Positions 5,960 through 22,777 of a DNA stretch of 64,000 nucleotides are shown here, piece by piece. Below the pieces are notes generated by a model. That model saw only the letters and a list, made by a program, of their open reading frames with translations. It was not told the origin of the DNA and made no database searches. Positions within the stretch are counted from its first letter, which is position 1. Every line of letters starts with the position of its first letter. Both the position numbers and the translations under genes were made by a program. The stretch is taken from contig OZ242260.1 of NCBI GenBank assembly GCA_965207065.1, positions 1,504,001 to 1,568,000 on the forward strand, given 5' to 3'. The stretch comes from a bacterium. GTDB taxonomy: Bacteria > UBA8248.

Positions 5960-6413
5960 TTTACGCTGCAATTCCGGCGCGGCTTCGGAGACATTTCTGT
6001 TGATTCGCTTGATTTTCTCTTTGCTTCGGGTACTTTCCATGTGCGGATGATGACCTGTGCGGAGAACATCACAGAACACAACAGGTGAATTCCCGCCTCA
6101 GTTTGCGACCACTTGCGACGCTCGATAGCCTCCATTGCGAGTTCGACCACGAGTCTGTTCGGCGATTTTTCTCGCCTTTCGGCTTCTTTTTCGAGGCGCC
6201 TCCACTGCTCGGGCTTCACCCTGACGTTCTTTTGTATTGTCTGAAGCCTCGGTTTTGCAGCTTCTTTATTGAAGGTTTTCACTCTAATTGATCGCAAAAC
6301 GGGTCGGAAAATCCCGTTTCCTTGCATCGGGCTCGCTACATTTTGGGCGCATGCATCCTCAAAAAGCCCCGGTCGATGAGATACCAAACGGATAGCCATC
6401 ATAGCGCAGCGCA
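5960..6413 (-). repeat. copy C of small RHH-like gene (frameshifted) plus conserved upstream hairpin region
   Basis: TIQKNVRVKPEQWRRLEKEAERREKSPNRLVVELAMEAIERR; aligns with 40967-41428 including ~130 bp of non-coding DNA. Confidence 0.8.
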
Positions 6414-6481
6414 CGCCCATCCGTATTCTCATAGCATACGTGCAGGAAACACCCTGATACCAGATGTATGCCATCAGCATA

Positions 6482-7399
6482 GTGCGCCGTGGAAAGGCGC
6501 CATTCCCTAGCGGGTGCGAATCCCGCCCGGCAACTGTCGCTCCAGCCGGTAGCAATCGGGGCGGGTGATGGAGGCAACGACATGGCCTGAAGCACTCCGA
6601 TGGAAAAGGGCCGCCACGGGCGGCTCAGCGACCATGCGGGCCGCAACGCGAGTGAACGCCGAGCAGGCCTCGAAAATGCATGATGCGAGTGCCGACCCGC
6701 CTATGCAACGGGGAAGGCTGTCACCGGCCGGGAAGCGAGCGACATGAGCACCGGCCGGGTCTCGCCGGGGTAGTGGCGGCGGCACGCATGGAAGATGGGA
6801 ATGGCAGCAACACGGGAAGCCCTGCCGGTGGAGCGCACACTCCAACCGGAACCCCGCGAGGGGCAGGCCGGGCCGGCAGGGTGGCGGATGGGCTCGTAGT
6901 ACCTGAGAGGCCGGGTAACGCCGGCGGAGGAAAGGAGCCCTGGTTCGGGAGCGATGCGGAAAGGGAGGAAGGGCATGACCACTGGCGAGAGCCTATCAGG
7001 GTCGGAAAAGGCTCGGAAACTCCAGACCGTGTTACATGCGAAAGCCAAGGAAGAACCCGGACGGCGCTTCCACGCGCTGATAGACAAGGTGTGGCGCGAA
7101 GACTTTCTGGCCGAAGCCTGGAGGCGGGTCCGCCGCAATCGCGGGGCCGCCGGGGTGGACGGAGAGACGTTCGCGGACATCGAGGCGTACGGCGTGGGAC
7201 GCTGGCTCGGGGAACTGGCGCGGGAACTGAAGGATGGGGTATACGCACCGAAGCCTGTGCGACAAGTGCTCATCCCGAAGAAACAGCCCGGCAAGTTCCG
7301 GCCTCTGGGCATCCCCTGCATAAGGGACCGGGTGGCGCAGACGTCGGCCCTGCTCGTGCTTGAGCCGATATTCGAAGCGGACCTGCAACCGGAGCAGTA
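6482..7399 (+). mobile_element. group II intron, 5' portion, truncated by IS256
   Basis: GTGCG start, structured 5' region, candidate EBS1 TATGC (~6702) complementary to exon end GCATA, followed by RT ORF; no DV/DVI after the interruption. Confidence 0.8.
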
Positions 7400-7400
7400 G
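6975..7400 (+). pseudogene. ltrA: group II intron reverse transcriptase/maturase, N-terminal fragment
   Basis: GAAGVDGET, PVRQVLIPK..GKFRPLGIPCIRDRVAQ..LEPIFEADL; ends at the IS256 IR, before YADD. Confidence 0.85.
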
Positions 7401-7429
7401 AGTTACTGTCAAATGTTGTGTATGGCCGT

Positions 7430-7692
7430 ATGTGGACGGCCCCGTAAATGCAAACATGTTGTTTGAACGATTCAGGGTCTGTGGTCAGGTGCAGTCGTAT
7501 GTCCGACCTCTTGGTGCGGCATATCTCTCACCGCGGGCCCGTATGGAGATGCGCGGATCGGGTCCGAATCGTCCTGGCGAGCTCAAGGGCTCTCGGCCAT
7601 ACCCCGGTTTACCCGACCCTGTCTCATTGACCATTTACCCTTACCCGTCCTCCGACCTGCTCACATTCCTGGATAATCCGTTTGTCTGCCGC
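7430..7692 (-). ncRNA. putative seek/bridge RNA region of IS1111 copy 1
   Basis: Homologous to 20160-20430; internal 9-mers at 7594-7602 and 7568-7576 match the two insertion junctions. Confidence 0.75.
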
Positions 7693-8460
7693 TCAGGCGA
7701 CCGGCGCCGGTTCCTGGTAGACTTCTTTCTTCGTCATCAGCGCCCATGCGATGCGCGCCATTCGATTCGCCAGCGCCACCGCGACCAGCATTCGTGGCTT
7801 GCGCGCCAGCATCCGGGCCAGCCATGAGCCCGCCGGCGCGCCGCGCCGGACCGCGCTGCGCACCACCGTCATAGCACCTATGTTCAAGAGCCGCCTGATG
7901 TCGCGCTGTCCCATCTTCGACACTTTGCCCAGTCGGGACTTGCCTCCGGTCGAGTGCTGTCTGGGCACGAGGCCGAGCCAGGCGGAGAAGTCCCGTCCGC
8001 GTTTGAAGCTCTCCAAAGGCGGCGCGAAGGCCAGTATCGCCGACGCGGTGATCGGACCGATTCCCGGGATGCTCATCAGACGCCTCGCCTCCGCATCCGC
8101 GTAAGCGCCCGCGTGGAGTTGCCTCTCCAACTCCCTGATCTTCTCGTTGAGTTCGGCAATTTGATCGAGAAGAACCCCGCCCAACTCGCGGACCACCGTC
8201 GGCAGCTCCGTAACCGGGTCTCCAAGAGCCGCCGCCAGGCGAGAGGTATTCACTAGTCCCTGCGGAGCGATGACCCCGAACTCCGCGAAGTGACCGCGCA
8301 ACGCATTGACAGTCTGCGTGCGCTGGCGAACCAGGAGATCGCGCGTGCGGAACATCATCCCCTGGGCCTGCTGCGTTTCGCTCTTCACCGCCACGAAGCG
8401 CATGGTCGGGCGCGAGGCGGCCTCGCAGATCGCCTCCGCGTCCGCCGCGTCGTTCTTCTG
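7693..8460 (-). pseudogene. IS110 transposase, C-terminal part
   Basis: QKNDAADAEAIC, SIPGIGPITA, AWLGLVPRQHSTGGK, VALANRMARIAW. Confidence 0.9.
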
Positions 8461-8504
8461 ACGCTTGACCAAAAGGGTCACACACTGCCCGTTATCATGA
8501 TGGG

Positions 8505-8945
8505 GTGAGGGTTTATTACCGCTACCATCCGCTGGCGGGCTGCCGCGTAACTTGCCTTGGGCGTCGAAAGGCGTATGGGCAGAGGATGTTGATCATCCGG
8601 CATCCGGACGGAACACAGATGCATGTCCCGGAGTGGATGACCAGGCCGGATGCGGCCCTGCTCGAGGTTCGCGACGTCCCGAGAATCTCCCTGCGGGCGC
8701 TTCGTGAATTGCGGAATCTCATCGATGCGTCTCTTCTTGTACCGGACCAGGCCCGGAGGGGAGGAGACGATGAACACCAGACGCCGAAATTCGAAACAGG
8801 GGGAACTGTTTCCCCCGGAACAACCGCCGCACCTGATAACGGACGAAAGACGCGAGGCGCTGATACCGCTCCTGTCGATGACCATCGCAGTGGCCATGGA
8901 AGCTCCGGGACCGGAGAGCCCGACGAGTCGGGGGGCCGGCCATGA
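8505..8945 (+). CDS. DUF5372-like accessory protein of recombinase element (ends uncertain)
   Basis: RVYYRYHPLAG...PDGTQMHVPEWMT motif. Confidence 0.6.
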   Translation: MRVYYRYHPLAGCRVTCLGRRKAYGQRMLIIRHPDGTQMHVPEWMTRPDAALLEVRDVPRISLRALRELRNLIDASLLVPDQARRGGDDEHQTPKFETGGTVSPGTTAAPDNGRKTRGADTAPVDDHRSGHGSSGTGEPDESGGRP

Positions 8946-8952
8946 GGGGTGA
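8770..8952 (+). CDS. small accessory protein of recombinase element (60 aa)
   Basis: GGAGGAG RBS; MNTRRRNSKQGELF...; overlaps recombinase start. Confidence 0.55.
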   Translation: MNTRRRNSKQGELFPPEQPPHLITDERREALIPLLSMTIAVAMEAPGPESPTSRGAGHEG

Positions 8953-11017
8953 GCAAACAAGGATCACCGCCGGCCATCTGGCGCGCGCGGCCTGTGTCTA
9001 CGTTCGACAGTCCTCACTCGGCCAGGTTCGCAACAACCTGGAAAGCCAGCGCCTTCAGTACGGATTGCAGGCCCGCGCGAAGGAGCTGGGCTGGCGGGAA
9101 GTGATGACGATCGACGAGGACCTCGGCCGTTCGGGAGGTGGCGGCGTCGAGAGGCCCGGCTTCCAGAAACTCCTGAGCGCGGTCTGCGAGAACAGGGTCG
9201 GCATCGTGTTGTCCGTCGACGCCTCCCGCCTGTCCCGAAACGGCCGTGAGTGGCATACTCTTCTCGAGTTCTGCGCCGTGGTCGGCTGCCTCCTGGGAGA
9301 CGGGCGCGGCATCTACGACCCCGGTCTGCCCGATGATCGCATGCTGCTCGGCATGAAGGGGAGCTTCAACGAAATGGAAAGCTCGCTCCTGCGCCAGCGC
9401 TCCCACGACGCCCGTCGCCAGAAGGCGGAGCGGGGCGAGTTGTTCCTGAACCTGCCGGCCGGATACGTGAAGGTCGGGCGCGACGCCATCGCGCTCGACC
9501 CCGACCAGCGGGTGCGCGACGCGGTACGGCACGTATTCCGCAAGTTCACCGAGCTGCGGAGCATTCGCCAGGTGTTCCTGTGGTTCCGGCAGGAAGGAGT
9601 CGAGCTTCCGTATCGCTCTCTCGACACCGGCGTTCATGGATGGCGGGTCGCCTGGAAGCTGCCGGTGTACAATACCGTCCACCAGATCCTGACCAACCCG
9701 ATCTACGCGGGCGCCTACGCCTACGGTCGCAGGAGGCGGCGGAGGGTGATCGAGGAGGGGCGCCAACGCATCGTGAACGAGGTCAGGCGCAACCCGGAGG
9801 AGTGGGCGATATTGATTCGCGACAACCACGAGGGCTATATCTCCTGGGAGGAATATGAACGCAATCGCGGCCTGATCGCGGCCAATGAGCCGAAAATCAA
9901 GGGAGCGGTGCGCGAGGGCGGCGCGTTGCTGACCGGCTTGTTGCGATGCGGTCATTGCACCCACAAACTCCAGGTCGTCTATTCGGGGAACAGCGGGGTG
10001 GGCCGCTACCTCTGCCAGGGCAGGCGGTCGCACACGGATGGTACAACCTGCATCTCCTTTGGTGCGGGCGACGTCGACGAGGCCGTCGCCGCCGCCGTGT
10101 TGCGAGCGGTAGAGCCGCTGGGAGTGGAAGCCGCGCTCGGTGCGCTCAAAGAGCGCGGAAAGGAAGCAGCCGAACGCGCCCGTCTGGCGGAGCTGGCGCT
10201 CGAGGAAGCCCGGTTCCAGGCGGAGCAGGCGCGGGCGCGGTTCGAGGCGGTCGATCCCCGCAACCGCAACGTCATCGGCAATCTCTCGCGGGCATGGGAG
10301 GAGCGCCTCGAGGTCGTGCGGGAGCGGGAGGCCCGGTTGGAGGCGGCGCGCTCACAACTCCAGCTTCAGGAGCCGACACCCTGCGAGCGAGCCGCGTATC
10401 TCGCCCTCGGCGCCGATCTGGAGCAGGCCTGGAACCATGAGAACGTGACGACCGCGATGCGCAAGCACATTCTGCGCGCGGTGCTCGTTGAGATCATCGT
10501 GACCGTCTCGGCCGAGCGGATCGATCTCGTCCTGCATTGGGAGGGCGGCGATCATACGGGACTCTCCGTACGCAGGAGAAAGAGCGGACTAACGCGTATC
10601 GCGGCGGACGCCGACACCGGGACCATGATCCGGGAACTTGCCCGCCTCATGCCGGACCGGGCCATCACCGCGTTCCTGAACCGGGCCGGGAAGCGGACCG
10701 GCAAGGGCAATGCCTGGACCGAGGCGCGCGTACGCGCCTGGCGTTCCCATCACGGCATAGCGGTCTATCGTGATGGGGAGCGACAAGAGCGCAACGAACT
10801 GACACAGACCGAAGCCGCGGCGAGGCTGAAAGTCAGCGCCAGAACAATGAACCGTCTGATCAAGCGCGGCGTTGTTCCGGCCCGCCAGGCCTGCAAGGGC
10901 GCGCCCTGGGTGATATCCGCAGATGCTCTCGAACTGCCGGATGTTGCCCGGGCGCTGAAAAAGGGAGTATACCCGCCGGCACCGGATGATGAACAGAAAA
11001 CCTTTTGTTTTCAATAA
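8942..11017 (+). CDS. large serine recombinase (resolvase, recombinase, Zn ribbon, C-terminal HTH), 691 aa
   Basis: YVRQS catalytic motif, DASRLSRN, ILTNPIYAG, LTGLLRCGHC. Confidence 0.92.
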   Translation: MRGEQTRITAGHLARAACVYVRQSSLGQVRNNLESQRLQYGLQARAKELGWREVMTIDEDLGRSGGGGVERPGFQKLLSAVCENRVGIVLSVDASRLSRNGREWHTLLEFCAVVGCLLGDGRGIYDPGLPDDRMLLGMKGSFNEMESSLLRQRSHDARRQKAERGELFLNLPAGYVKVGRDAIALDPDQRVRDAVRHVFRKFTELRSIRQVFLWFRQEGVELPYRSLDTGVHGWRVAWKLPVYNTVHQILTNPIYAGAYAYGRRRRRRVIEEGRQRIVNEVRRNPEEWAILIRDNHEGYISWEEYERNRGLIAANEPKIKGAVREGGALLTGLLRCGHCTHKLQVVYSGNSGVGRYLCQGRRSHTDGTTCISFGAGDVDEAVAAAVLRAVEPLGVEAALGALKERGKEAAERARLAELALEEARFQAEQARARFEAVDPRNRNVIGNLSRAWEERLEVVREREARLEAARSQLQLQEPTPCERAAYLALGADLEQAWNHENVTTAMRKHILRAVLVEIIVTVSAERIDLVLHWEGGDHTGLSVRRRKSGLTRIAADADTGTMIRELARLMPDRAITAFLNRAGKRTGKGNAWTEARVRAWRSHHGIAVYRDGERQERNELTQTEAAARLKVSARTMNRLIKRGVVPARQACKGAPWVISADALELPDVARALKKGVYPPAPDDEQKTFCFQ

Positions 11018-11040
11018 CGTAGAGGGGTGACTTAGTATGA

Positions 11041-11301
11041 CTGGCGTTTCACGTAAGGCTTCACGTAGACCGGTGGCATGAGCTTCACCTCGTGACCGAG
11101 CCTGCCGATCTCGCGGCCCCAGTAGTGCGCGCTCGCGCACGCCTCCATCGCAATCAGGCAGCGCGGCTGCGAAGCCAGAAAACCCGGTACATTCCCCCGG
11201 GTCAACTTCTTGCGAAACGCGACCGAACCGTCTATGCGCGCGCCATGGAGTTGAAAACCATGTTTCACCAAGTCGATACCGATGATGTGAACCTGTTCCA
11301 T
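11041..11301 (-). pseudogene. IS110 transposase, N-terminal part
   Basis: MEQVHIIGIDLVK, MEACASAHYW, YVKPYVKRQ; GGAGG RBS. Confidence 0.9.
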
Positions 11302-11381
11302 GGGGTCCTCCTTCCGGGCGGTATGAAGACGCCACCTCGCCACAGTGTGATACCTGCCAGGAGGGGTCGTCCACCCCATCG

Positions 11382-12004
11382 TCCTGAGTTCAGCGGCCTC
11401 CCTGCCGGTTTCTTTTTCGTTCACCCCATCGATGAACCTCACGTCGGTGATCACGTCGGCCAGATGACGCAAGCCGCTTAGCCGCCCCCATCGCTTCTCG
11501 GCGCTCATGGCGAGTTGATGCACCAGGCTCAGCGCCGTCTTCTCGCTCAGGCAGTTCCTCGTCTTCGCCGTTCGCAGCCGGATCGTGGCGAAGGTCGACT
11601 CGATGGGGTTCGTCGTCCGGATACTCCGCCAGTGCGCCGCCGGGAAGTCGTAGAAGGCGAACAACTCCTCGCGGTCCCGCGCCAGACACTCGGCGGCCTT
11701 GGGGTACTTCGCCTCCCAGGTGGCGAGAAAGCGTTCAAACGCCTTCTCCGCGCGCTCGCGGGCGTCGGCCCCCCACATCTCATACAGCATCGGCCTCGCT
11801 TCGCTCTGAACGCTTTTGGGCAGCTTGTCCAGAACGTTCGCCGTCTTGTGAACCCAGCAGCGCTGCGCCCGGGTCTCGGGATACACCTCGGCCAGCGCCG
11901 ACCAGAACCCCAGCCCCCCGTCGCCCACCGCCAGCTTCGCCGCCTTCACCCCCCGCTCCCGCAGGCTCAACAGAACCGCCTTCCAGCTCTCCTTCGATTC
12001 CCGG
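11382..12004 (-). pseudogene. IS256 transposase, C-terminal part
   Basis: RESKESW, LAVGDGGLGFW, QRCWVHKTAN, IRTTNPIESTF. Confidence 0.9.
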
Positions 12005-12024
12005 TTATGTAGAGCTCTACATAA

Positions 12025-12138
12025 CCGGGATTATGTGGAGTTCATGGTTATGTGGAGTTCATCCTGGAGTTCGTTGTTTTTGTGTGGTTTGCGGGTAGCG
12101 AACTCCACATAACTTTTGCATCGTCTCTCCTGTCCGCG
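12025..12138. repeat. RIT left terminal inverted repeat (114 bp)
   Basis: Reverse complement of 15393-15506 with one mismatch; internal TTATGTGGAGTTC repeats. Confidence 0.92.
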
Positions 12139-12191
12139 TCGTTTCGGAGAGCGGCGGCAAGACAGGCCTGCCGCCGCTCTCCGTTCCCTCA

Positions 12192-13202
12192 TCAGCACCT
12201 CGAGCGTTGTCCGTCTCCATTGCCTGCGAGCATGGCGAGCAGCTTGTCGGGCGCCCGGAAGCGACCCGGCCGGAGGTCCGGCAATCGGGCGCCGTCGAGC
12301 ATCTCGAGTTTTTCTGTGGGGTCGGCGTGCAGATAGACCTCGGTGCTCTGGATGGTCGCATGTCCGAGCCAGAGGGAGACCTTGCGCATGTCCCCGGTTG
12401 CCTGAAGCGTATGCATCGCGCAACTGTGTCTCAGGGTGTGGGGCGTCACGTGTTTGCCGGCGAGGCCCGGCTCCGCCCTGGCCGCGTTCTTCAGATGTTT
12501 TGCGAGTATGACGTTGAACCCCCAGCGGCTCAGCCTTCGCCCGAGCCGGTTGTGGAACAGTTCCGGGTCGCCTTCGGGGTCGCGCAGGCGGAGCCATGCC
12601 TCGATGCCCGAGCGCGTCTCTTTCCAGAGCGGAAGTCTCCGCTCGCGGCGTCCCTTGCCCATGATCCGGACGCCGGCCGGCGCCCGGCGGTCGTAGTCGT
12701 CGAGCTTCAGGGCGGTCAGTTCACTGACGCGCAGTCCGCAGGCGTACGTCAGATGGAGCATGGCCCGGTCACGTATTCCGTCCCTTCGCCCCGGGTCGGG
12801 CGCGTCGAGCAGGGCCTTGATCTCGGCGCGGGTGAGCCAGGCCACCAAGGCCTTGTCTGCCTTCTTCTTCGGGATCAGGGCGATCCGGACGGCTTGCTCC
12901 AGGGTGCCGGGCTCGCGCCATTCGACGAAGCGGAAGAACGCCTTGACGGCCGCGAGGCGCGCGTTGCGCGTACTGACGGCCGCGCCCTTGCGCTCGACGT
13001 GCTCCAGGAAGGCGAGCACCATATCCGCGTCGATCTGCTCGAGAGCAAGCTGCGAAGGTCTCACCCCGAGCCTGCGGGCGACGAAGCGCAGCAGCAGCGA
13101 CAGCGCTCGCGAGTAGGCGTCCACCGTGTTCGGGCCGGCGCCCTTCTCAAAGGGGAGATGCTCGGACACGAAGGCGCTTGCATGCCGGGCCAGCGGGGTC
13201 AT
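12192..13202 (-). CDS. ritC: RIT tyrosine recombinase C
   Basis: GLRVSEL, GKGRRER, TPHTLRHSCA, WLGH, TEVY. Confidence 0.88.
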   Translation of the reverse strand: MTPLARHASAFVSEHLPFEKGAGPNTVDAYSRALSLLLRFVARRLGVRPSQLALEQIDADMVLAFLEHVERKGAAVSTRNARLAAVKAFFRFVEWREPGTLEQAVRIALIPKKKADKALVAWLTRAEIKALLDAPDPGRRDGIRDRAMLHLTYACGLRVSELTALKLDDYDRRAPAGVRIMGKGRRERRLPLWKETRSGIEAWLRLRDPEGDPELFHNRLGRRLSRWGFNVILAKHLKNAARAEPGLAGKHVTPHTLRHSCAMHTLQATGDMRKVSLWLGHATIQSTEVYLHADPTEKLEMLDGARLPDLRPGRFRAPDKLLAMLAGNGDGQRSRC

Positions 13203-14116
13203 GACGCGTCCTCCCCATGGAAGGCTTCCGTCCGCCGGGCGACTTCTCCCAGCAGCGCCTCGGTGCTCTCGTGATACCACCAGGTATGGGCGACGGAGGC
13301 ATGGCCGAGCCAGGCGCTGAGAGCGACCATGTGCCGGGCGACCGCCCGCCGCCCGGAGCCGCAGGCTTCGAGCGAGCGCACCGCGAAGGTGTGGCGCAAG
13401 TCGTGGATACGCGGGTTGCGCCCGTCTTCCCGCGCACCTGCGAGACCTGTGCGCGAGCGCATCCGGCGGAACACGGCGCGGGCCGCGGAAGGACCCATGC
13501 GGCCGCGGCCGTCGGCCAGGAAGAGGGCTTCGGTATCCGCCGGCACGCGAACCCGCGCCCGGAGGTGACGCGCGAGTTGCGTTTCGACCGTGGGATGGAA
13601 GGGCAGCAGGCGCCGTCCTCCACGCTTCGCCGTCCTGACCATCAGTCCCTCCGGGGTGACGTCATCCACGTCGATCGCCAGCGCCTCGCAGCCCCGCAGT
13701 CCGGTGGCGGCGATCAGCCCGAACAGGATCCGGTACTGGCCCGGGACCGGGCACCTGATCGTGGCGCACTCATCGGCCACGGCCAGGAGCGCGGCGATCT
13801 CGGAAGCAGAGTAGATGTAGGGCTTGGGCCGCACCCGGTGCGCGCGGGGCAGGACGTCCGCCGGAGGCGCCTCGTGCCGGGGGTCCTCCACGGCCATCGC
13901 CAGGGCGAAGCGGCGCACGAGCAACACCAGTCTGCGCCGCTGCAGGGCCGATGAGGAACGGCGCGCCCATTCGAGGACGCTCTGCGTGTTGACGTGGCTA
14001 TCGCCGCGGGCCTGCGCGAAGGCGGCGTAGTTCGCGAGACGCCGGGCGTCCTTGCGGAAGCTGCGCCCGGCGGCGCGGATGGAGGCGACGTATCGCTCGA
14101 CGGCATCGACGATCAT
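13199..14116 (-). CDS. ritB: RIT tyrosine recombinase B
   Basis: PYIYS, ATGLRGCEA, PRIHDLRHTFAV, AWLGH..HTWWY. Confidence 0.88.
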   Translation of the reverse strand: MIVDAVERYVASIRAAGRSFRKDARRLANYAAFAQARGDSHVNTQSVLEWARRSSSALQRRRLVLLVRRFALAMAVEDPRHEAPPADVLPRAHRVRPKPYIYSASEIAALLAVADECATIRCPVPGQYRILFGLIAATGLRGCEALAIDVDDVTPEGLMVRTAKRGGRRLLPFHPTVETQLARHLRARVRVPADTEALFLADGRGRMGPSAARAVFRRMRSRTGLAGAREDGRNPRIHDLRHTFAVRSLEACGSGRRAVARHMVALSAWLGHASVAHTWWYHESTEALLGEVARRTEAFHGEDAS

Positions 14117-15354
14117 GACGCGCCTCCCGGCCAGGGCTGCGCAATCTCGCGAAGCCGTATCGGGTCCGTTCTGGCGTAGATGGAAGTGGTCAGTATACTC
14201 CTGTGCCGCAGGAGCGTGGCGATGGTCTCCAGCGTGGCGCCGTCTTCGAGCAACCGGCAGGCCACCGAATGGCGAAGCAGGTTTACGCCTCCCGATGGAG
14301 TATCCTCCAATCCCGCGCGGCGCAGGGCGCTCGCGACGATTGAGCCGACGACGGACGAGGAGGAGAAGGGACGCCAGGGCGGACGCATACAGAGGAACAC
14401 GTGCGGGTCGTCCAACGGCGGCCGCCCGTCCTTCAGCCAGACGAGGATGGCGTCGCCGACCTCCTGGGGCAGGGGCAGCGTGGCCTCGCGACGCCCCTTG
14501 CCCGTGACGCGCAGACGTCCGCGCCGCCAGTCGATCTGCTCGAACGTCAGGCCGCCGGCGTCGCCCGCCCTGAGCCCCAGCCGGGCGACCAGGAGCAGGA
14601 AGGCGAGGTCCCGCCGTCCGATCGCCGTGCCCGTGTCGCAGGAGGCGAGGAGCCGCTCCACCTCCGCCGCCTTCAGGCCGCGCGGAACGTTGTCGCGCCG
14701 CGGCATGACGACGCACGGCACGGCTCTTGCCAATATCGCCGGACACCGGTCGAGCGCGGCGTTGTACCCGAGCCAGGAGCGTAGCGCCGTCGCTCTCGAC
14801 TTCCGGGAGGGCAACTTCCCGGACAGACCCGCGTGGGAGAACGCCGCGCGAAGGTTCGCGGCGTCGTAGCGCGCCGGGTCCGTGCCGACCAGCGGCAGCA
14901 GTTGGCTCAGCGCGCACTCGTAGCGCCGCAGGCTCGAGGCGGCCAGCCCCTTGTGCCGCCCAAGCCAGTCGAGCCAGGCCGCGACCTCCGGCGCCCGTTC
15001 CGGCGTTCGCACCGCCGGAGCATCGGTCACCCCGCTCCCTGAGAGGAACCGCACGAACCTTCGCACCCCGTAGAGGTACCTCTTGCCGGGCGGACGGCGG
15101 CGCGCCCCGGGACAGCGGCACTCATGAGCGCCGAAGCGAGCCACATCGCTCTCGACGGCGTCATCCGGACATCTGCCCGTCAAGTGAAGCCAATGGCAAA
15201 AATGCCGGGCTGCCTGAACGTATCCCTCCACCGTCGAGCAAGTGTGATCGAGTTGGAACAGATGATGCCGGTAGGCGTCGACGTGCCGGGCGTGCGGCCC
15301 CATGTCCATCAACCAGCGTCGTGTGACAGGATCGAATCGTGTCGTATCGGGCAT
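14113..15354 (-). CDS. ritA: RIT tyrosine recombinase A
   Basis: RLGLRAGD, GKGRRE, LLRHSVA, LLRH..TTSIYA; GGAGG RBS. Confidence 0.88.
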   Translation of the reverse strand: MPDTTRFDPVTRRWLMDMGPHARHVDAYRHHLFQLDHTCSTVEGYVQAARHFCHWLHLTGRCPDDAVESDVARFGAHECRCPGARRRPPGKRYLYGVRRFVRFLSGSGVTDAPAVRTPERAPEVAAWLDWLGRHKGLAASSLRRYECALSQLLPLVGTDPARYDAANLRAAFSHAGLSGKLPSRKSRATALRSWLGYNAALDRCPAILARAVPCVVMPRRDNVPRGLKAAEVERLLASCDTGTAIGRRDLAFLLLVARLGLRAGDAGGLTFEQIDWRRGRLRVTGKGRREATLPLPQEVGDAILVWLKDGRPPLDDPHVFLCMRPPWRPFSSSSVVGSIVASALRRAGLEDTPSGGVNLLRHSVACRLLEDGATLETIATLLRHRSILTTSIYARTDPIRLREIAQPWPGGAS

Positions 15355-15392
15355 CGTAACCTCCTGTTGTGAATAGGCGCCCGAAGCGCGGG

Positions 15393-15506
15393 CGCGGACA
15401 GGAGAGACGATGCAAAAGTTATGTGGAGTTCGCTACCCGCAAACCACACAAAAACTACGAACTCCAGGATGAACTCCACATAACCATGAACTCCACATAA
15501 TCCCGG
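15393..15506. repeat. RIT right terminal inverted repeat
   Basis: Inverse of 12025-12138. Confidence 0.92.
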
Positions 15507-16132
15507 AAGCCCGGCTCCAGGGCCAGGAAGCGCTTGCGGCCCCGCGCGTCGCAGCCCACAACCACCAGAAGACAGCGCCGCTCCCCGCTGCGCACGTTCA
15601 CGTAGATGCCGTCCGCCCACAGATACGCGAACTCCTCGTCATCCCACGCCCGCTCGCGCCACTGCGCGTACTCGCGCTCCCAGCCCTCCTTGAGACGCGA
15701 GACCGTCGACGGGGACAAGCCCCCCACCGACTCGCCGAACAGCGCCCGGAGCGCCTCATCGAAGTCGTTCGTCGATACCCCCTTCAGGTACAGCCACGGT
15801 ATCACCGCCTCCACGCGCCGCGTCTTGCGCAGATACGGCGGCAACAACTCCGAGCGGAAACGCCGCCCCGAACCCGACCTGTCCCGCGTCCGCGGGACAC
15901 GGACACGCACCCGACCCACTCCCGTCAATACCTCCCGCGACGGCAGATAGCCGTTGCGCACCACCGCGCGACGACCCTGCGCGTCGTGTTCGCCCGCATG
16001 TTCTGCCAGATAGGCTTCCAACTCCGCTTCCACCGCCTGGCGGATGATTCGCTGCGCGCCCGCGCGTACCAGTTCGCTCAACTCGTCGCGATAGGCTGGA
16101 TTCCGGAAGGGAATCGTCGTATCTTCTCTCAT
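15501..16132 (-). pseudogene. IS256 transposase, N-terminal part
   Basis: VVRNGYLP, VRVPRTRDR, LYLKGVST, YLWADGIY, broken at ALEPGFR. Confidence 0.9.
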
Positions 16133-16322
16133 GGTGGCGCATCTCCTTGTGCTGAATGACCGGGCTTCTGACAACCCTATTTCAGCAGGATGCGCCGCCT
16201 TCTTCAATTCAGCCCATACACAAGTTCTGAGAGTAACTCCAGTATATACGATGATTTTTGCAAAAGGAAAAATTGGTGATTGGTCGTAATTGCATAAGGC
16301 ATATACTCACTTGACTAACCCA

Positions 16323-17291
16323 CTATCTATCAGGCCATATTTCAGCATCCTCGCCCGGTTCTTGATTTGGCCTGAAATCCAGCAGGTAGGTTTCGGGGTC
16401 GATTTTCGAGAACGTAACATCTGTCCGGCCATACTCGATGAGGTGATGCCTCGTCACATACACGCCAGAACCAACACGTAGACGCGCCCTCAAGTAAGCA
16501 CCGAGCAAACTGTTGTCCTGTGTAGTGTGCAATCCCTTTCCGGCATCTTGAGCGCGAACACATATGAAGCTGTCGCCATCATCCGTAAGAACCGTGAATT
16601 GCTCAAACCTGTCAGGGAAGAATCCACTACGCCCCACGCTTGCGGGAATGTTGATGTAGGCTTGGTTCGGGTTTCTCCCAGACCTTTGCCCCCAGTTAAT
16701 GCCCGATCTGGTAGGCGTCTCACCTTCTCTCGAAAGAAGAGTGAGGGTAACGCTTTCAAGTGGGCTTCCCGTCTCAAAACCCTTCCGGCTTTGCAGCAAG
16801 GTGATCTGAGTGTCGATATGGGGCTGAATGCAGTCCGATGCGTTCCTGAGAATGAGGTTGTGGAAGTCGTTTGCATCGCATGAATCGGCTGGGGACATGA
16901 CCTCTATTTGCGCCCTTCCGAATCCCGTCATAGTATAGTTGGCGGAGCCGCAGAAAGCCTTTATCGGCTCTCCTTTGGCATTCAACCACACATACGATTT
17001 AGCATGAACTGGATTGCCTCGAACCACGTATCGGCAAATGAAGTCCGTATCCCAGGACGGATGATCCATCATTTTGCAGAATGCGGAATGCTGGGCTTCC
17101 TCTATCCCGTGTTGTATCGTCATGCCGATTATGAGTTCTATCGAGATGTTGAGGTCTAGTTCCTTCAGGTGCTCCATATGCCTGTCGGCCATATTCGCGG
17201 TAGCGAATCCGCTGACAATACGCAGGCGCCCTCCGTTCACGTCATACGCGGGCGATAGCAGGACTTCACGGAAGAGGTCTTCGTGGATCAT
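16323..17291 (-). CDS. PLD-type restriction endonuclease (NgoFVII-like)
   Basis: IVSGFAT, HAKSY...GSANYT PLD motif, SGINWGQ..RNPNQAYI; coupled to the MTase. Confidence 0.8.
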   Translation of the reverse strand: MIHEDLFREVLLSPAYDVNGGRLRIVSGFATANMADRHMEHLKELDLNISIELIIGMTIQHGIEEAQHSAFCKMMDHPSWDTDFICRYVVRGNPVHAKSYVWLNAKGEPIKAFCGSANYTMTGFGRAQIEVMSPADSCDANDFHNLILRNASDCIQPHIDTQITLLQSRKGFETGSPLESVTLTLLSREGETPTRSGINWGQRSGRNPNQAYINIPASVGRSGFFPDRFEQFTVLTDDGDSFICVRAQDAGKGLHTTQDNSLLGAYLRARLRVGSGVYVTRHHLIEYGRTDVTFSKIDPETYLLDFRPNQEPGEDAEIWPDR

Positions 17292-18373
17292 ATTGTGAGT
17301 TCATAAGCAGGGACGTCATGCTTGACGAGTGAATTCAGGACGGCGCGATAAACGACCTCCGCGCCCTTCGGTGGAACGGCCATGCCGATTTGCTTTCGCA
17401 CGGATTCTTTCCCGCCCTCAAAGACAAAGCTGTCGGGAAATGTTTGGAGTCTCGCCCTTTCTCTATTCGTCAAGGCGCGATTTTCTTCCCAATGATATAG
17501 ATGCGTTCCACCGCCACCGGAACCAGTAACCGTATAGCTTGGCGCATCCGGCTTGAGTCTTCTGTAAATTTGGCTGATGGTTGCGCCGCTCTTGAGGTTC
17601 AATTTTAGATGCTTGGGCAAATCAGCCGTGAAGGCGTTCTCTCCCGGCTTGATATGTTTCAACCTCTCGACAACATTTCCAGACTGGTTTGTGCGCTCGT
17701 TGTTGGTCGCATCATCCGGTATGTCGCTCAATGCTTCTTTAGCCGTATTGAAATTATCCATGTGTGTGGGCGCAGGATGCTCGAAAGAATCAATGCCCAG
17801 GTCTTTGCGAAAACCGACCACGAACAATCTGTGGCGCGCTTGAGGCACTCCGTATTCCTCTAGGCGATAGGTGTGCGGGAAAATCGCATATCCGGCTTTT
17901 CGCAGGGAAGACAGGATGATGGCAAAGTCTTTATTATCACCGCTCGACTTGATGCCGCTCACATTCTCGGCTACGAAAAATGCAGGTTTCTTCGCCTTGA
18001 GCGCACGCACTCCCCAGATGTAAAGGCCACCATGCTGGCCAGATATACCCCGTCGCTCTCCTATTACGCTGAAATCATTGCATGGGAACCCGAAGGCCAG
18101 CCCGTCAATATCCGCCAGTTCCTTGAAGTCCAAGTCCTTCACATCCCCGCACATGACACCGCCTTCCGGCAACGGGATATTATTTTCGAGCGTCTTGCAA
18201 GCATCCGCGTCCCTGTCGTTTACCCACACGTGAACGAAACCATGCCCGCCCACCTTCGCGTTGTGCGCGCCCAGCGTCATGCCTCCTGCACCAGCAAATA
18301 ATTCACCTATCCGATAGGTCTTGTGATCCGGAGATGGAGCCATAGCGAGCGCAAGCTGATTGTCGAAGCTCAT
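17288..18373 (-). CDS. DNA (cytosine-5)-methyltransferase
   Basis: ELFAGAGG, GFPCNDFS, AENVSG, PQARHR, RERARLQTFPD, QIGMAVPP. Confidence 0.93.
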   Translation of the reverse strand: MSFDNQLALAMAPSPDHKTYRIGELFAGAGGMTLGAHNAKVGGHGFVHVWVNDRDADACKTLENNIPLPEGGVMCGDVKDLDFKELADIDGLAFGFPCNDFSVIGERRGISGQHGGLYIWGVRALKAKKPAFFVAENVSGIKSSGDNKDFAIILSSLRKAGYAIFPHTYRLEEYGVPQARHRLFVVGFRKDLGIDSFEHPAPTHMDNFNTAKEALSDIPDDATNNERTNQSGNVVERLKHIKPGENAFTADLPKHLKLNLKSGATISQIYRRLKPDAPSYTVTGSGGGGTHLYHWEENRALTNRERARLQTFPDSFVFEGGKESVRKQIGMAVPPKGAEVVYRAVLNSLVKHDVPAYELTI

Positions 18374-19296
18374 CCGGTAAGCTCCCGCCAAGAGAGTTTC
18401 CCGCAGGTGATGCGGCTGATGATGTTTTCACATCGGATGCCTGAGCTTCGCTCTTTCCTCATGTTGAATCGAGCGGAGTATTCGTCCACATAGCGATGCA
18501 AATGCTTCGCGCTCATCTTGTAATAGACGCCGATATAACCGCGCTTGAGCAAGCTCCAAAAGCTTTCCACGCCATTCGTATGCGCCATGCCCTTCACATA
18601 CTGGCCTACGCGGTGGTTCACCATGACATGATGATAGAGACGGCCTAGATGCCGATAGGAGAGAAACTCATCCGTTGAAATGACCGACCCGGATGCGACC
18701 GACTTGAGGACTTCCCTTGCTATGGTGCGCTTCTTGGTGTTCTCGACTGGACGGGCCACAATATCTCCGCCTCGTTGTAACATCGCCAGGACGGGTTTCT
18801 TCGTTTTTAGACTGCGCCCCTTGGTTCCTCCGGTGCGCTTGTGTTTATGCTTGTTGGCCTCTCGACCCCCGATATAACTTTCATCGACCTCAATCGTTCC
18901 CGAGAGCTTGGGAGCCTTTTCGGTTGCGCCAAAGGCTTTTCTGATTCTGTGTTCCATGAACCATGCCGTATTGTATGCAACGCCAAGCTCACGCTGCAAC
19001 TGCGTAGCGGGAATGCCTCTGCGATTCGAGGACATGAGCCATATCGCCACGATCCATTTTCGGAGAGGAACTGGAGAATCCTGAAATATCGTGCCGATTC
19101 TCACAGTGAATTGATCACGGCAATCAGCGCACTTATACCGCTTCCCATCGCTGAAAGCATAGACCTTGCCCGTGCTTCCACACTTAGGGCAATACATCCC
19201 ATGCCGCCACCTGATTTGCGCGATGTACTTGTGAGCCGCTTCCTCGTTCGGTATGTTTTCGTATAGCTGATTCAGGCTGTCAAAACTTATTTCCAT
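18370..19296 (-). CDS. IS1595-family transposase
   Basis: Zn ribbon CPKC..CADC; EVDESYIGG, STDE, HTNGVESFWSLLKRG. Confidence 0.92.
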   Translation of the reverse strand: MEISFDSLNQLYENIPNEEAAHKYIAQIRWRHGMYCPKCGSTGKVYAFSDGKRYKCADCRDQFTVRIGTIFQDSPVPLRKWIVAIWLMSSNRRGIPATQLQRELGVAYNTAWFMEHRIRKAFGATEKAPKLSGTIEVDESYIGGREANKHKHKRTGGTKGRSLKTKKPVLAMLQRGGDIVARPVENTKKRTIAREVLKSVASGSVISTDEFLSYRHLGRLYHHVMVNHRVGQYVKGMAHTNGVESFWSLLKRGYIGVYYKMSAKHLHRYVDEYSARFNMRKERSSGIRCENIISRITCGKLSWRELTG

Positions 19297-19544: not shown

Positions 19545-20432
19545 GAAGGCTGCGGTGCCATCTGGCGGAGTTCGGGCTCATCGCTCCAAAAGGGGCCGGT
19601 TCATCTCACATGGTTGCTGTTGGCAGTGAAAGGTCTGGACTCGGGTCTGCCGGAGGCGGTGCACGAACTGGGCGGGGTTCTGCTCGCGTAGATTGCCAGC
19701 CTGAAGGAGAAGATACAGGAGTTGGAGGGGCAACTGCGCGCGAGCGCGCGCGAAGACGAGGAGGCGAGACACCTGATGAACATCCCGGGGGTCGGGTCGC
19801 TCTGCGCGTCGGTGATACAGGCCTTCGCGCCGCCGATGGAAAGCTTCCGACACGGGAGGGATTTCTCCGCCTAGATCGGCCTCGTGCCCCGACAACACTC
19901 CACGGGCGGCAAAACGCGGGTGGGCAGAATATCAAAGATGGGCCAGCGCGACATCAGGCGGCTTTTGATCATAGGGGCCATGGCGGTAGTGGGTTGGGCG
20001 GTCCGGCGCGGCGCGCCGGCGGGTTCATGGTTGGCCCGGATGTTGGCGCGCAAACCTCTTATGCTGGTCGCGGTGGCGCTGGCGAATCGAATGGCGCGCA
20101 TCGCTTGGGTGTTGATGACGAACAGGGAATTCCACAAGGAGCCTGTGCCGGTCATCTGAGCGGCAGGCGAGTGAATATAGCCGGGAGGAATGTAAGCAGG
20201 TCGGAGGACGGGTAAGGGAAAATGGTCGACGAGACGGGATCGGGAAAACCAGGGTACATTCGAGAGTTAACAAGCTCGCGAGGCCGATTCGGACCCGGTC
20301 CGCGCATCTCCATACGGGCCCGCGGTAAGAGTTAAACGCCGCAAACGAGAGGTCGGACATACGACTGCACCTGACCACGGACCCTGAATCGTTGAAATAA
20401 CATGCTTGTATTCACGGGGTCGTCCACATACG
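19545..20432 (+). mobile_element. second IS110/IS1111 copy, 5'-truncated, transposase pseudogene
   Basis: Homologous to 7430-8300; internal TAG stops; PRQHSTGGK; right end GGGGTCGTCCACATACG. Confidence 0.85.
20160..20430 (+). ncRNA. putative seek/bridge RNA region of IS1111 copy 2
   Basis: Same scaffold as copy 1; GTACATTCG (20254-20262) is the reverse complement of flank CGAATGTAC (20431-20439). Confidence 0.72.
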
Positions 20433-20618: not shown

Positions 20619-22777
20619 ATGAACATCGCAGAACTCAAACAAATTAGCCGGACTGGACCGGTTCTCGACATAACTAATTACACAGATCATTTCATAAGGT
20701 CACTTGTTAAGTTGATCCGAAGCACGAAACGTCACGGCGTTATGTTTGAGACGGAATCGTCGACTTCCGCAGCCGCATGGCTACTGTGTATAGCGGATGC
20801 CAATGCTTTCGGAACCCTCAGCACCGACGCTCAGTTGGAATGTACATTTCCCGAGATGGCTCCAAACCAACTCCTAGGATTTCGGGGGCAGAAGGCCAAA
20901 TATGAGAGTATTGTGACTAGACTGCATCGATTATTGCGCCAGGCTAAGCCCTGGAGAGGAGGATGCCATGACCTGAAACCTCTCGTAGCGACCCAGAGGG
21001 TTCGACTCCCGCCCGGCAAAGGCGAAGCCGGCCAGCCGGAAGCGAGTCTTGCATGGCGTGCGGCAACGCCCGTCGTGAAGCGTAGACAGCAGGTGATGAA
21101 GCGGCGGGGTAAGCCTCGAAATCGGTCAATCGACGACGCCTTCATTGTTAATCGTGTGGGGGCAGCACCGGGAGCGCCGCCAATGGCGAGGCGCAACGGG
21201 TCGTCCGGGGTCGTGGGCCGGCGCAAAGTCACGGGACGGGTCGCCAGGGAACCTGGGAGATCCTGCTCTTGCCCGTGGGCAAGAACGCTGGAAAGGGGAC
21301 GGCCAGCGTGAACAATCCAGACCCCGGCCCGTCGCCGGACCTGCACGGCGGCGGGAGCGCCCCAGGGCGGACACGAACCCGGCAGGCGCCCGCGGAACCG
21401 GCTGGCCAAAACAATAAGCCGAAGGACATGCGAGGGTAGGAAGTCGTAGCGCCCTGATAGTACCGCTGAAGGCGGGGAACCGTGGCCATCGGGACCCGCT
21501 GGAGGGAAGCGGGGCGTCATCTGTACAGAACCACTGATGGGAAACGATGGAGGAAACTCTGAGTTCCACCAACACGTACACGAAACAGCAGTGGATAGCC
21601 GAACAGGCGAGGAATGCCTCGACCTGCGGACCAAGGGTGACAACCCCTTGAGCGAACCTGTCAGGTGAGGAACCGAGTGCGTCAATCGCGCACGCTCGGG
21701 TCTGCGGGGGGAGGGGCGCAGCAATGCCCCCTCCTACCCGGCCCTCAAGAAAAGCGTGTCGAGGCAGACAAAGCTTTCAGTTGGTTTCGTGCTGCAATTT
21801 CAGCTTGGCACAATACAAACTTCCGCTACCTTAATGACATGTTCGACAATGGTGGGGTTGAGCATGAGTCCGCCATGGGTGTCGCGCAACATTACCAACT
21901 CCCCACTTTTTTAGTGGACTGGACATGGAATCCTTTCGTGGCCTTGGCGTTCGCCATGTCCGATCTAAGGGATGGTGAAGAGGGCGTGGTCTTTCTTCGA
22001 GATTTTGGCGACGGAACTAACCCAACATCCGACTATAACGTTCTTTTGCCGCCGTCGTTTGCCAAGAGAGCTTGGCGTCAAAGGGCGTTCTTTTCCTGGC
22101 ATCCAGTTGCTCCTGAGGATTGGGACAATCCGGTCGTGCAGAGAATTGCAGGGGATATTCCGCGGCATAATGCAATGCCCAACAATTATTATCACATCAA
22201 ATTTCGTGCGACTGAGAGTGACATAAAATGGGCGAAACAGAGTTATGCTGGATTGATGAAGGAGGATCTGCCCGGCTTGGGTTGCTTGGCGAAATGGTGT
22301 TTAGAAGCCGCACGAAAGGGCGCGAATGGGCCTTTACATCCCAATGTTCTCTCGTTGGATGATTTCCAGAAATGGTGTAATCGTTGCAACTTGAATTTAC
22401 CTGAGTTTGTGGTGACGAATCGAGAAGTGGAAGTAACAGAGAACTTTGCTCTCATGATGGATTATATAGATGAAATGAGCGTTAGGCGTAATCCAAGTAA
22501 TGGCACAATCGGTTACTTCATTCCGAGTGTGTTAACGGCCTGTGTGGGAATGCCATGGAACAGTTGTATGAAGTATCCCGCCCGCGGACTTAAGAACCTG
22601 AATGATCCAAGAGCAGATGTTTTCTTTGACGATGATGGGCAACCCTGTATGGATCACTGGCATAAAAAGCTGAGCTATATGAAGTCGTTGGTTGACATAA
22701 GACGTATACAGAACGACGATTTTTTTCGATCAATGTTTGTAGAACGCCCGCGGGGAAAGAGGCAACAAATCGGTTAA
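20619..22777 (+). CDS. FRG-domain protein split by a group II intron (exons 20619-20933 and 21743-22777; 449 aa spliced)
   Basis: FRGQ in exon 1; AQHYQLPTFLVDWTWNPFVALAFA and QRAFF in exon 2; exons join in frame. Confidence 0.8.
20934..21742 (+). mobile_element. ORF-less group II intron (809 nt)
   Basis: TTGCG start; DV GAGGAACCGAGTGCG..CGCACGCTCGGGTCTG; DVI ending CTACCCGGC; EBS1 TAATCG (21149-21154) pairs with CGATTA (20928-20933); only a short RT stub remains. Confidence 0.85.

Follow-up and report, generated by a model that had tools for sequence, protein, structure and literature searches.

How do five mobile elements come to lie one inside another, and do any of them choose the element that they occupy? 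We addressed this for a 9.8-kb stack (6482–16239) in a sponge-symbiont genome, in which a group II intron remnant, an IS256-family element, an IS1111-family element, a large-serine-recombinase mini-element and a RIT element are nested. Coordinates are those of the analysed 64,000-nucleotide stretch (contig OZ242260.1, positions 1,504,001–1,568,000, assembly GCA_965207065.1), hereafter the window. Components were called by open reading frame (ORF) listing, sequence reading, repeat finding, and Pfam and Rfam scans. The original prediction of a five-element nest describes a real structure with nearly exact coordinates, except that the span of the IS1111 element and the notion of a "cut" intron need correcting. 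We consider the stack very probably a true series of five selfish-element insertions, at least two of which were aimed at the element they occupy. Aimed nesting as a mechanism has good support for two layers, the IS1111 element and the serine-recombinase element.

The IS1111 element lies in the last codons of the IS256 transposase gene, where it had been placed, although the predicted span (7427–11381) is 2 bp too long, because a CG core flanks both sides (7427–7428 and 11380–11381) and the inserted DNA is 3953 bp (7429–11381). The translation given earlier for the IS256 end keeps one CG and is right. A second IS256 end in this genome holds the 14-nt IS1111 target undisturbed and without insert (...GTGTATGGC-CG-TCCTGAG..., read around the core as GGC-CG-TCCTGAG), and this empty end is the only other place in the genome where the 14-nt target is found. 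The IS1111 element is itself in two pieces, both on the minus strand. Its 5' part (11044–11381) comprises the left end, with a 7-nt extension (counting one CG) and a 12-nt subterminal repeat, and transposase residues 1–87; its 3' part (7429–8460) comprises residues 88–341 (7693–8460) and a 264-nt non-coding region (7429–7692). Both transposase halves match DEDD_Tnp_IS110 / Transposase_20 in Pfam, on two separate ORFs. Joining 7427–8460 to 11044–11381 gives an open 341-aa frame (MEQVHIIGIDL...VKPYVKRQ/KNDAADAEAI...HSTGGK...PAPVA, the slash marking the interruption), collinear with two intact paralogs of the same genome, so that this predicted rejoining holds. The uninterrupted copies that had been called for also exist: whole-genome BLAST found three of IS1111 at about 95% identity, two with intact 341-aa frames and the third with an N-terminal stop. 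The 12-nt subterminal repeats, GTGGACGACCCC and GGGGCCGTCCAC, agree at 11/12 positions and carry extensions of CGATGGG (7 nt, one CG counted) and ATA (3 nt). According to sections of Siddiquee et al. 2024 (PMC11187229), IS1111 elements have a DEDD (RuvC-like) transposase of ~340 aa, subterminal repeats of 11–13 bp with extensions of 7 bp on the left and 3 bp on the right, and a long non-coding region 3' of the transposase gene that encodes a seekRNA with segments matching both target sides. The element described here has the ~340-aa DEDD transposase, the subterminal repeats with 7/3-nt extensions and a downstream non-coding region with target-matching segments, the RNA itself being predicted.

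These target-matching segments are two blocks within the non-coding region, block 1 at 7594–7602 (minus strand; RNA GUAUGGCCG) and block 2 at 7570–7576 (minus strand; RNA CAGGACG). We aligned the 3' regions of six IS1111 copies, which represent five independent sites (the window; paralogs A and C, at one duplicated site; paralog B; the metagenomic loci L081/L082; and L083). The two blocks vary together with the right and left target flanks across the five sites, with the neighbouring sequence conserved, and the match between block and flank is perfect over 6–9 nt at four sites. In the window, block 1 reads GTATGGCCG, the right flank being the complement of CGGCCATAC, and block 2 reads CAGGACG, with a left flank of TCAGGACG. 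Each block likewise fits its own flank in A/C (GTCTGGCCG and TGGGCCG), B (GTACCGCCG and CCCGCCG) and L083 (AAATCCG and GTAAGCG), and L082 has one mismatch per block (GTGCTGCCG against the target GTGCAGCCG; GCTGACG against GATGACG). In the RNAalifold consensus structure, the blocks occupy the two sides of an internal loop that encloses a small hairpin. As the blocks match both IS256 flanks and covary across the five sites, the insertion appears to have been aimed, and we regard it as well supported that this IS1111 copy was directed to the IS256 end by its own guide, a guide predicted from covariation. A general preference of IS1111 for IS256 was considered and rejected, as the paralogs occupy other sites, each with its own guide.

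The IS1111 transposase gene is in turn split by a large-serine-recombinase mini-element of 2583 bp (8461–11043, plus strand), in agreement with the original prediction: intact IS1111 paralogs run across the site and fix the ends of the insert, which is present in a single copy in the genome. It encodes a 691-aa recombinase (8942–11017, plus strand) with Resolvase (PF00239), Recombinase (PF07508) and Zn_ribbon_recom (PF13408) domains and a C-terminal HTH_17, preceded by a small conserved ORF (8505–8945, plus strand; 146 aa) with a weak match to DUF5372 (E 0.0024, below the cut-off). R22-Q23-S24 of the recombinase is invariant in 23 aligned relatives, and we take the serine of this triplet to be the nucleophile. 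Only CAG is common to both junctions, the crossover lying within the shared CAG/CTG, and no target duplication is present. Catalytic, Recombinase and zinc-ribbon domains are thus found together with site-specific insertion at a conserved site without duplication. The IS1111 "YVKRQKNDAADA" site, at the KRQ/KND codons, is a candidate attB, and four vacant attachment sites for the element are present in this genome. A search of the other 22 genomes of the genus yielded no close relative of the recombinase (best match 36–55% identical), and for this reason the element looks like a recent arrival.

Where the relatives of this recombinase reside was examined in a survey of 160 loci (80 from species-representative genomes and 80 from metagenomes). 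The window recombinase falls with those of L081/L082 (98% aa identity), L083 (86%) and L001 (83%) on a single tree branch with support 100, and all five members of this clade (the window, L081, L082, L083 and L001) adjoin an IS110/IS1111 piece at the same codon. In each of the five, an N-terminal piece of the IS110/IS1111 gene, antisense to the recombinase, ends ...V(K/N)R directly before the Q-K-N-D codons; in L001 the other side of the host insertion sequence (IS) has been lost. The composites lie in different genomic flanks, and their host IS parts are much more diverged than their recombinase parts. The L081/L082 host IS has 92% nucleotide identity to the window copy. For L082, the IS parts are 91.6–93.5% identical to the window at the nucleotide level and the recombinase part 97.4%; in L083 the figures are 71–74% and 85%. 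The L001 element is 80% identical in nucleotides; its host, compared with paralog A over the N-terminal piece that matched, is about 57% identical in amino acids. For the pair formed by the window and L082, the recombinase has a synonymous distance of 0.061 (nonsynonymous to synonymous ratio, dN/dS, 0.19) and the IS1111 transposase one of 0.162 (dN/dS 0.21). Both genes are under purifying selection (dN/dS about 0.2), and from these distances the recombinase elements look younger than their hosts, as expected from independent insertions. The simplest reading of these comparisons would be repeated site-specific integration into IS1111 copies that had already diverged. The view that different recombination chemistries parasitise one another here is borne out by the IS1111 guide that matches an IS256 end and by a recombinase clade found only at one IS1111 transposase codon. 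In L081/L082, TGA replaces the invariant W104 at codon 104 of the recombinase, and this copy is probably dead as judged from that stop.

The wider family behaves similarly. Relatives of 680–690 aa number 6276 proteins at E<=1e-3 (among 8000 candidates scored), many of them on stand-alone contigs of 2.5–2.9 kb. Pairs of loci share about 2.6 kb only, pointing to a discrete mobile unit, and several pairs share 3–5 kb, which fits such a unit nested in another repeat. The N-terminal ~75 aa of the small upstream ORF are conserved in 136/160 loci. By seed matches, 63 of the 160 loci adjoin IstB pieces, 9 a tyrosine recombinase and 6 IS110/IS1111; nothing was detected at 63, and 19 had no flank. A Pfam scan of 47 boundary-touching ORFs from 24 loci (three near-duplicate ORFs excluded) gave 14 matches to IstB_IS21, 5 to Phage_integrase, 2 to DEDD_Tnp_IS110 and 2 to Transposase_20. 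Relative to the recombinase the IstB pieces run antisense, and the break in IS21 istB falls at the Walker A codons. For the loci at which seeds had detected nothing, we scanned 124 of 169 candidate flank ORFs, omitting near-duplicates and the tail of the list; matches included DruA (13), IS66 transposase (10) and other serine recombinases (4), as well as Lon/AAA+/Mg-chelatase ATPases and single IS91, IS6, DDE_5 and rve matches. Many of these flank ORFs are spurious high-GC frames, so non-matches are uninformative. On a FastTree phylogeny of 153 recombinases (8/161 were dropped as too short), the four labelled target classes require 3 changes, against a mean of 14.6 for shuffled labels. Recombinase clades thus each target one conserved site in the genes of other mobile elements, namely IS21 istB, tyrosine recombinases, IS66 and IS110/IS1111. 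The istB-site relatives belong to the same family and share the ~2.6-kb two-gene layout with the window clade, which differs in having its site at KRQ/KND of IS1111/IS110; DruA-like genes and a second IS110 site are among the targets of other clades.

Some further placements were seen in this survey. L002 has a relative of the element within another large serine recombinase gene, L027 and L053 have sense-oriented relatives at another IS110 site, close to residue 225, and in L051, L052, L074, L078 and L079 relatives lie in tyrosine-recombinase genes directly after the HTLRHSFATHLL..DIR motif. Our literature searches, whose coverage excluded subscription journals and supplementary files, found no published description of this serine-recombinase mini-element family. 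Nested insertion sequences and the insertion of IS1111 into transposon ends are already known. We consider new the IS1111 "KND"-codon clade, the breadth of clade-specific targets, and the naturally occurring set of reprogrammed guides, one of them directed at an IS256 end.

The element that receives both the IS1111 and the RIT insertions is an IS256-family element (7400–16239, minus strand) with 26-nt inverted repeats (7400–7425 and 16214–16239) that are 85% complementary. It survives in three minus-strand pieces: the 3' end (7400–7428), with the inverted repeat, the last 5 transposase codons and stop, and the CG core of the IS1111 target; the C-terminal part of the transposase (11382–12004; positions 217–376 of the Pfam Transposase_mut profile); and the N-terminal part with the 5' end (15507–16239; profile positions 21–201). 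Rebuilt from these, the element is 1385 bp with an open 422-aa frame that ends ...EAAELRTAIHNI and a stop within the inverted repeat, just as the earlier reconstruction had it. IS256-family elements are about 1.3–1.5 kb long and generate target duplications of 8–9 bp. The Mutator-type DDE transposase, inverted repeats and length of the rebuilt element agree with this family, and the target duplication is absent. All other IS256 copies in the genome are fragments or frameshifted; as an intact genomic IS256 is lacking, the RIT junction was judged from a metagenomic joint (see below) and the Pfam profile coordinates. Since the IS1111 left end lacks a stop in the frame concerned, the C-terminal part of the IS256 transposase continues into residues 1–87 of the IS1111 transposase, giving a 312-aa chimeric ORF at 11032–11970 (minus strand).

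The RIT element (12005–15506, minus strand; 3502 bp) interrupts the middle of the IS256 transposase gene, as predicted. It has 114-nt inverted repeats (12025–12138 and 15393–15506; 99% complementary) around three consecutive tyrosine-recombinase genes in the same orientation (15354–14113, about 14200–13199, and 13280–12192, minus strand), each with a Phage_integrase match, an arrangement that places it among RIT elements, and the insert is bounded by repeated TCCCGG. A contig from run X1, a sponge metagenome of another study, passes directly from 11998 to 15501, omitting exactly 3502 bp; a RIT-free IS256 therefore exists in nature. Whole-genome BLAST found a second RIT copy (C1:2333902–2337407) that is 99.9% identical. 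This copy lies beside a different ORF (recognised by eye only) and not in a transposase gene, so specificity of the RIT for IS256 was rejected. A perfect 30-nt palindrome, CCCGGTTATGTAGAGCTCTACATAACCGGG, occupies the left end of the RIT in the window (12000–12029) and is made of two short copies of the RIT end motif; in the second RIT copy it is found at the opposite end relative to the three genes and the interior. Inversion of the RIT interior between the 114-nt repeats would give this difference in position. Palindromic ends and exonuclease-protected forms of RITs are reported in parts of PMC5737581. The genome is unusually RIT-rich. Four copies of a second RIT family give identical tblastn matches (C1, near 36, 903, 1152 and 2324 kb), and additional, diverged RITs are located near 90, 1480 and 3141 kb.

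The outermost layer differs from its first description. IS256 does occupy 7400–16239 as stated, but the intron reverse transcriptase (RT) gene is not simply cut by it: the intron is truncated at 7399 and retains only its 5' 918 nt (6482–7399, plus strand). It begins GTGCG and contains a domain I–IV RNA (6508–6771), with a match of 86.7 bits to Rfam group-II-D1D4-4 (RF02003) at 6508–6651 and a partial match to D1D4-6 (RF02005) at 6667–6771. An ORF at 6954–7399 encodes 148 aa of an RT N-terminus, 42% identical to other intron RTs in the genome by tblastn; this fragment has no Pfam match, and its identity rests on Rfam and on tblastn to intron RTs. No Rfam match to domain V/VI was found anywhere in the 64-kb window, and the rest of the RT is absent as well. 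The DNA after 16239 is of lower GC, host-like and not intron sequence; contigs of three runs carry the intron past 7399 into different sequence; and the IS256 flanks share CAGTA only. For these reasons we regard the intron as a truncated remnant of a group II intron, D1–D4 and part of the RT being present and domains V/VI missing, which probably arose by deletion or rearrangement at the IS256 end. The absent IS256 target duplication is read in the same way, as a secondary deletion or rearrangement, and does not count against placing the element in the family. A further group II intron D1–D4 match, unrelated to this one, is present 5 kb downstream from the nest at 21003–21220 (plus strand; RF02005, 123.6 bits).

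To judge whether the nest is an assembly product, we consulted contigs derived from sequencing reads of four runs. Run X19 contigs with 0 differences bridge host and intron (6000–6523), both recombinase junctions (8439–11082), and IS256 and host (16195–16800). A run X1 contig with 70 differences also bridges both recombinase junctions. Among the joints listed, three resemble empty sites (7426 to 11380, 8467 to 11051, and 8468 to 11053), and these were rejected as evidence of excision, as they fit the second IS256 end and the intact IS1111 paralogs. Of the empty-site junctions that were to be looked for, those traced match paralogous copies or another population's RIT-free IS256. We consider it extremely improbable that the nest is a chimera of mis-joined repeats. 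All components except the recombinase element are indeed repeats in this genome, and bridging was seen for some junctions only among the contigs listed. Such a chimera would nevertheless need two exactly matched mis-joins per layer, as the two flanks of each insert fit uninterrupted sequence elsewhere; moreover, the guide carried by this IS1111 copy fits the IS256 sequence on either side, the assembled genome is a single 4.48-Mb contig, and the recombinase junctions are bridged in two studies.

Is the stack, then, a neutral dumping ground, in which insertions into dead mobile DNA are tolerated and no layer chooses its target? Its surroundings would suit such an untargeted pile-up, as mobile and defence genes abound there (an IS1595 transposase, an IS5-like fragment, an NgoFVII-type restriction-modification pair, an IS110-like relic and a second intron fragment), and many IS256 remnants lie in the genome; the RIT and IS256 layers, too, are without demonstrated specificity. 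This account is contradicted for two layers, by guide blocks that fit the IS256 site on both of its flanks and change with the target at 5 sites, and by a recombinase clade with 5/5 members at one IS110/IS1111 transposase codon, and we hold it to be quite improbable overall. Somewhat different is the case in which the recombinase inserted into IS1111 once, long ago, and the composite has since moved as one non-autonomous unit, mobilised in trans by an intact IS1111 through the composite's own guide. The 3.95-kb composite can be aligned over its whole length between copies at different genomic targets (95.6% and 81% identity), every copy's guide matches its own flanks, intact paralogs in the genome could supply the transposase, and PMC11187229 reports that cargo between IS ends is moved. 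Against a single ancient insertion stand the recombinase parts, which are closer to each other than the IS parts (97.4% versus 91.6–93.5%, and 85% versus 71–74%, in nucleotides), the corresponding synonymous distances (0.061 versus 0.162), and L001, whose recombinase belongs to this clade and occupies that codon in an IS110-family gene with only about 57% amino acid identity to paralog A over the N-terminal piece. We therefore judge joint movement rather unlikely. Beyond the chance that the composite moves as a unit, several points weigh against aimed nesting. The guide covariation comprises five sites only, with single mismatches in L082; the differing synonymous rates could partly be gene-specific; 63 of the 160 recombinase loci have no target detected by seeds; the RIT has no evident specificity for IS256; and the IS256 flanks lack an 8–9 bp duplication, sharing only CAGTA. 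The read evidence consists of Logan assembled contigs rather than raw reads, and among the contigs listed the intron/IS256, IS256/IS1111 and IS256/RIT junctions of this copy are not bridged.

The original prediction had also proposed that precise excision acts as an ordered activation switch: in a reversible stack, the recombinase element would excise first, then IS1111, with the RIT leaving separately, and the transposases would be re-armed in order. Every interrupted frame is open after removal of the inserts in silico, excision by serine recombinases is conservative in principle, the small partner ORF conserved in 136/160 loci could be a directionality factor, and the IS1111 halves of two interrupted copies differ with a dN/dS of 0.21. 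Open frames are equally predicted by recent insertions, however, and any precise insertion, once removed, leaves the frame rejoined; the rejoining therefore validates the boundaries and not a function. Divergence that preceded independent insertions accounts for the dN/dS (recombinase dS 0.061 versus 0.162 for the IS). Being truncated, the outer intron cannot be re-armed; any benefit would go to selfish elements and not to host genes; and the traced empty-site joints fit paralogs or the RIT-free IS256 of another population. Decay would predict the stop codon found in the recombinase of the L081/L082 relative. As for the other enzymes, the origin of the circular IS1111 form without an equivalent rejoined target is given as not established in sections of PMC11187229, and the RIT mechanism as unknown in sections of PMC10214605. 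We regard a switch of this kind as very doubtful.

Under the preferred reading of successive, partly aimed insertions, the order of events would be as follows. A group II intron would have inserted into host DNA and later lost its 3' part. An IS256-family element would have landed in the intron RT gene, the present right flank being secondary (deletion or rearrangement). IS1111 would then have entered the IS256 end, 5 codons before the transposase stop, by means of its own seekRNA/bridge RNA with two guide segments complementary to the site; this presumes that the guide RNA is made and used. The 2.6-kb serine-recombinase mini-element would have integrated at the ...VKRQ/KNDAADA... codons of the IS1111 transposase, the putative dedicated attachment site of its clade, through a presumably active recombinase, and the RIT would have entered the middle of the IS256 transposase gene.

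The skin element (SpoIVCA), SPbeta (SprA) and the fdxN element (XisF) interrupt genes and are integrated and excised by large serine recombinases. As in those systems, a large-serine-recombinase element here lies precisely within a coding sequence that conservative excision would restore; unlike them, it is a minimal element (2.6 kb, two genes) with a transposase gene as its target, a C-terminal HTH_17 in its recombinase and no sign of developmental control. The closest precedent for the IS1111 layer is IS4321/IS5075, which Partridge & Hall in 2003 are said to have described as targeting the terminal repeats of Tn21-family transposons. Here too, IS1111 sits in the terminal repeat of another transposable element, but the target is an IS256-family end that overlaps the last transposase codons, the guides come from covariation, and the element's own transposase gene is split. 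RNA-guided elements of the IS1111 family, using a seekRNA or bridge RNA, were reportedly treated by Hiraizumi et al. in 2024 (PMC11208158). Elements of this kind have the same subterminal repeats, 7/3-nt extensions, downstream non-coding region and ~340-aa transposase as the copy in the window. In sections of PMC11187229, the seekRNA likewise has two short segments for the two target sides, with the complement of the top strand first, as here. RIT elements share with this one the three adjacent tyrosine-recombinase genes in the same orientation between inverted repeats, and near-identical copies within one genome. The archetype's inverted repeats are 34 bp, as cited in parts of PMC10214605 (Ricker et al. 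2013, Van Houdt et al. 2009; also PMC5737581), whereas those here are 114 nt, with an additional 30-nt end palindrome and a documented empty site. Finally, IS graveyards also contain elements within elements, the outer ones inactivated; the present stack differs in involving five recombination enzymes (RT/ribozyme, DDE, DEDD with RNA, Ser and Tyr) and two layers with demonstrable target choice.

Beyond the nest, a type II restriction-modification pair, consisting of an NgoFVII-like PLD endonuclease and a C5 cytosine methylase (16323–18391, minus strand), adjoins the IS256 end. An IS1595 transposase gene (18370–19296) is followed closely downstream by an IS110/IS1111-like relic (19647–20432) that shares 81% identity with the 3' part of the nested IS1111.

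The observations also allow a more speculative extension, which we put forward tentatively and consider improbable as a whole. The stack might represent a hierarchy of hyperparasites with programmed aim, in which an IS1111 guide is set to IS256 and recombinase clades are each set to one coding sequence of a catalytic motif (the IstB Walker A, the IS1111 "KND" aspartate, the tyrosine-recombinase RHxxA box, or IS66). A host element would be switched off by integration and brought back unaltered by excision, and the small partner would be the directionality factor, so that these elements would act as reversible gates on transposase production.

The empty site of the RIT matters because Table 1 of PMC10214605 gives RIT target specificity and empty sites as "not tested". 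The five guide/target pairs in near-identical IS1111 elements form a natural reprogramming series that is relevant to the engineering of bridge RNAs and seekRNAs. A family of two-gene serine integrases with short, conserved, clade-specific sites aids the annotation of mobile DNA and could possibly provide integrases with known natural sites. More generally, nesting can be a targeting strategy and not just debris: genes of mobile elements are multi-copy, conserved and dispensable to the cell, and would on this account make ideal, harmless landing sites.

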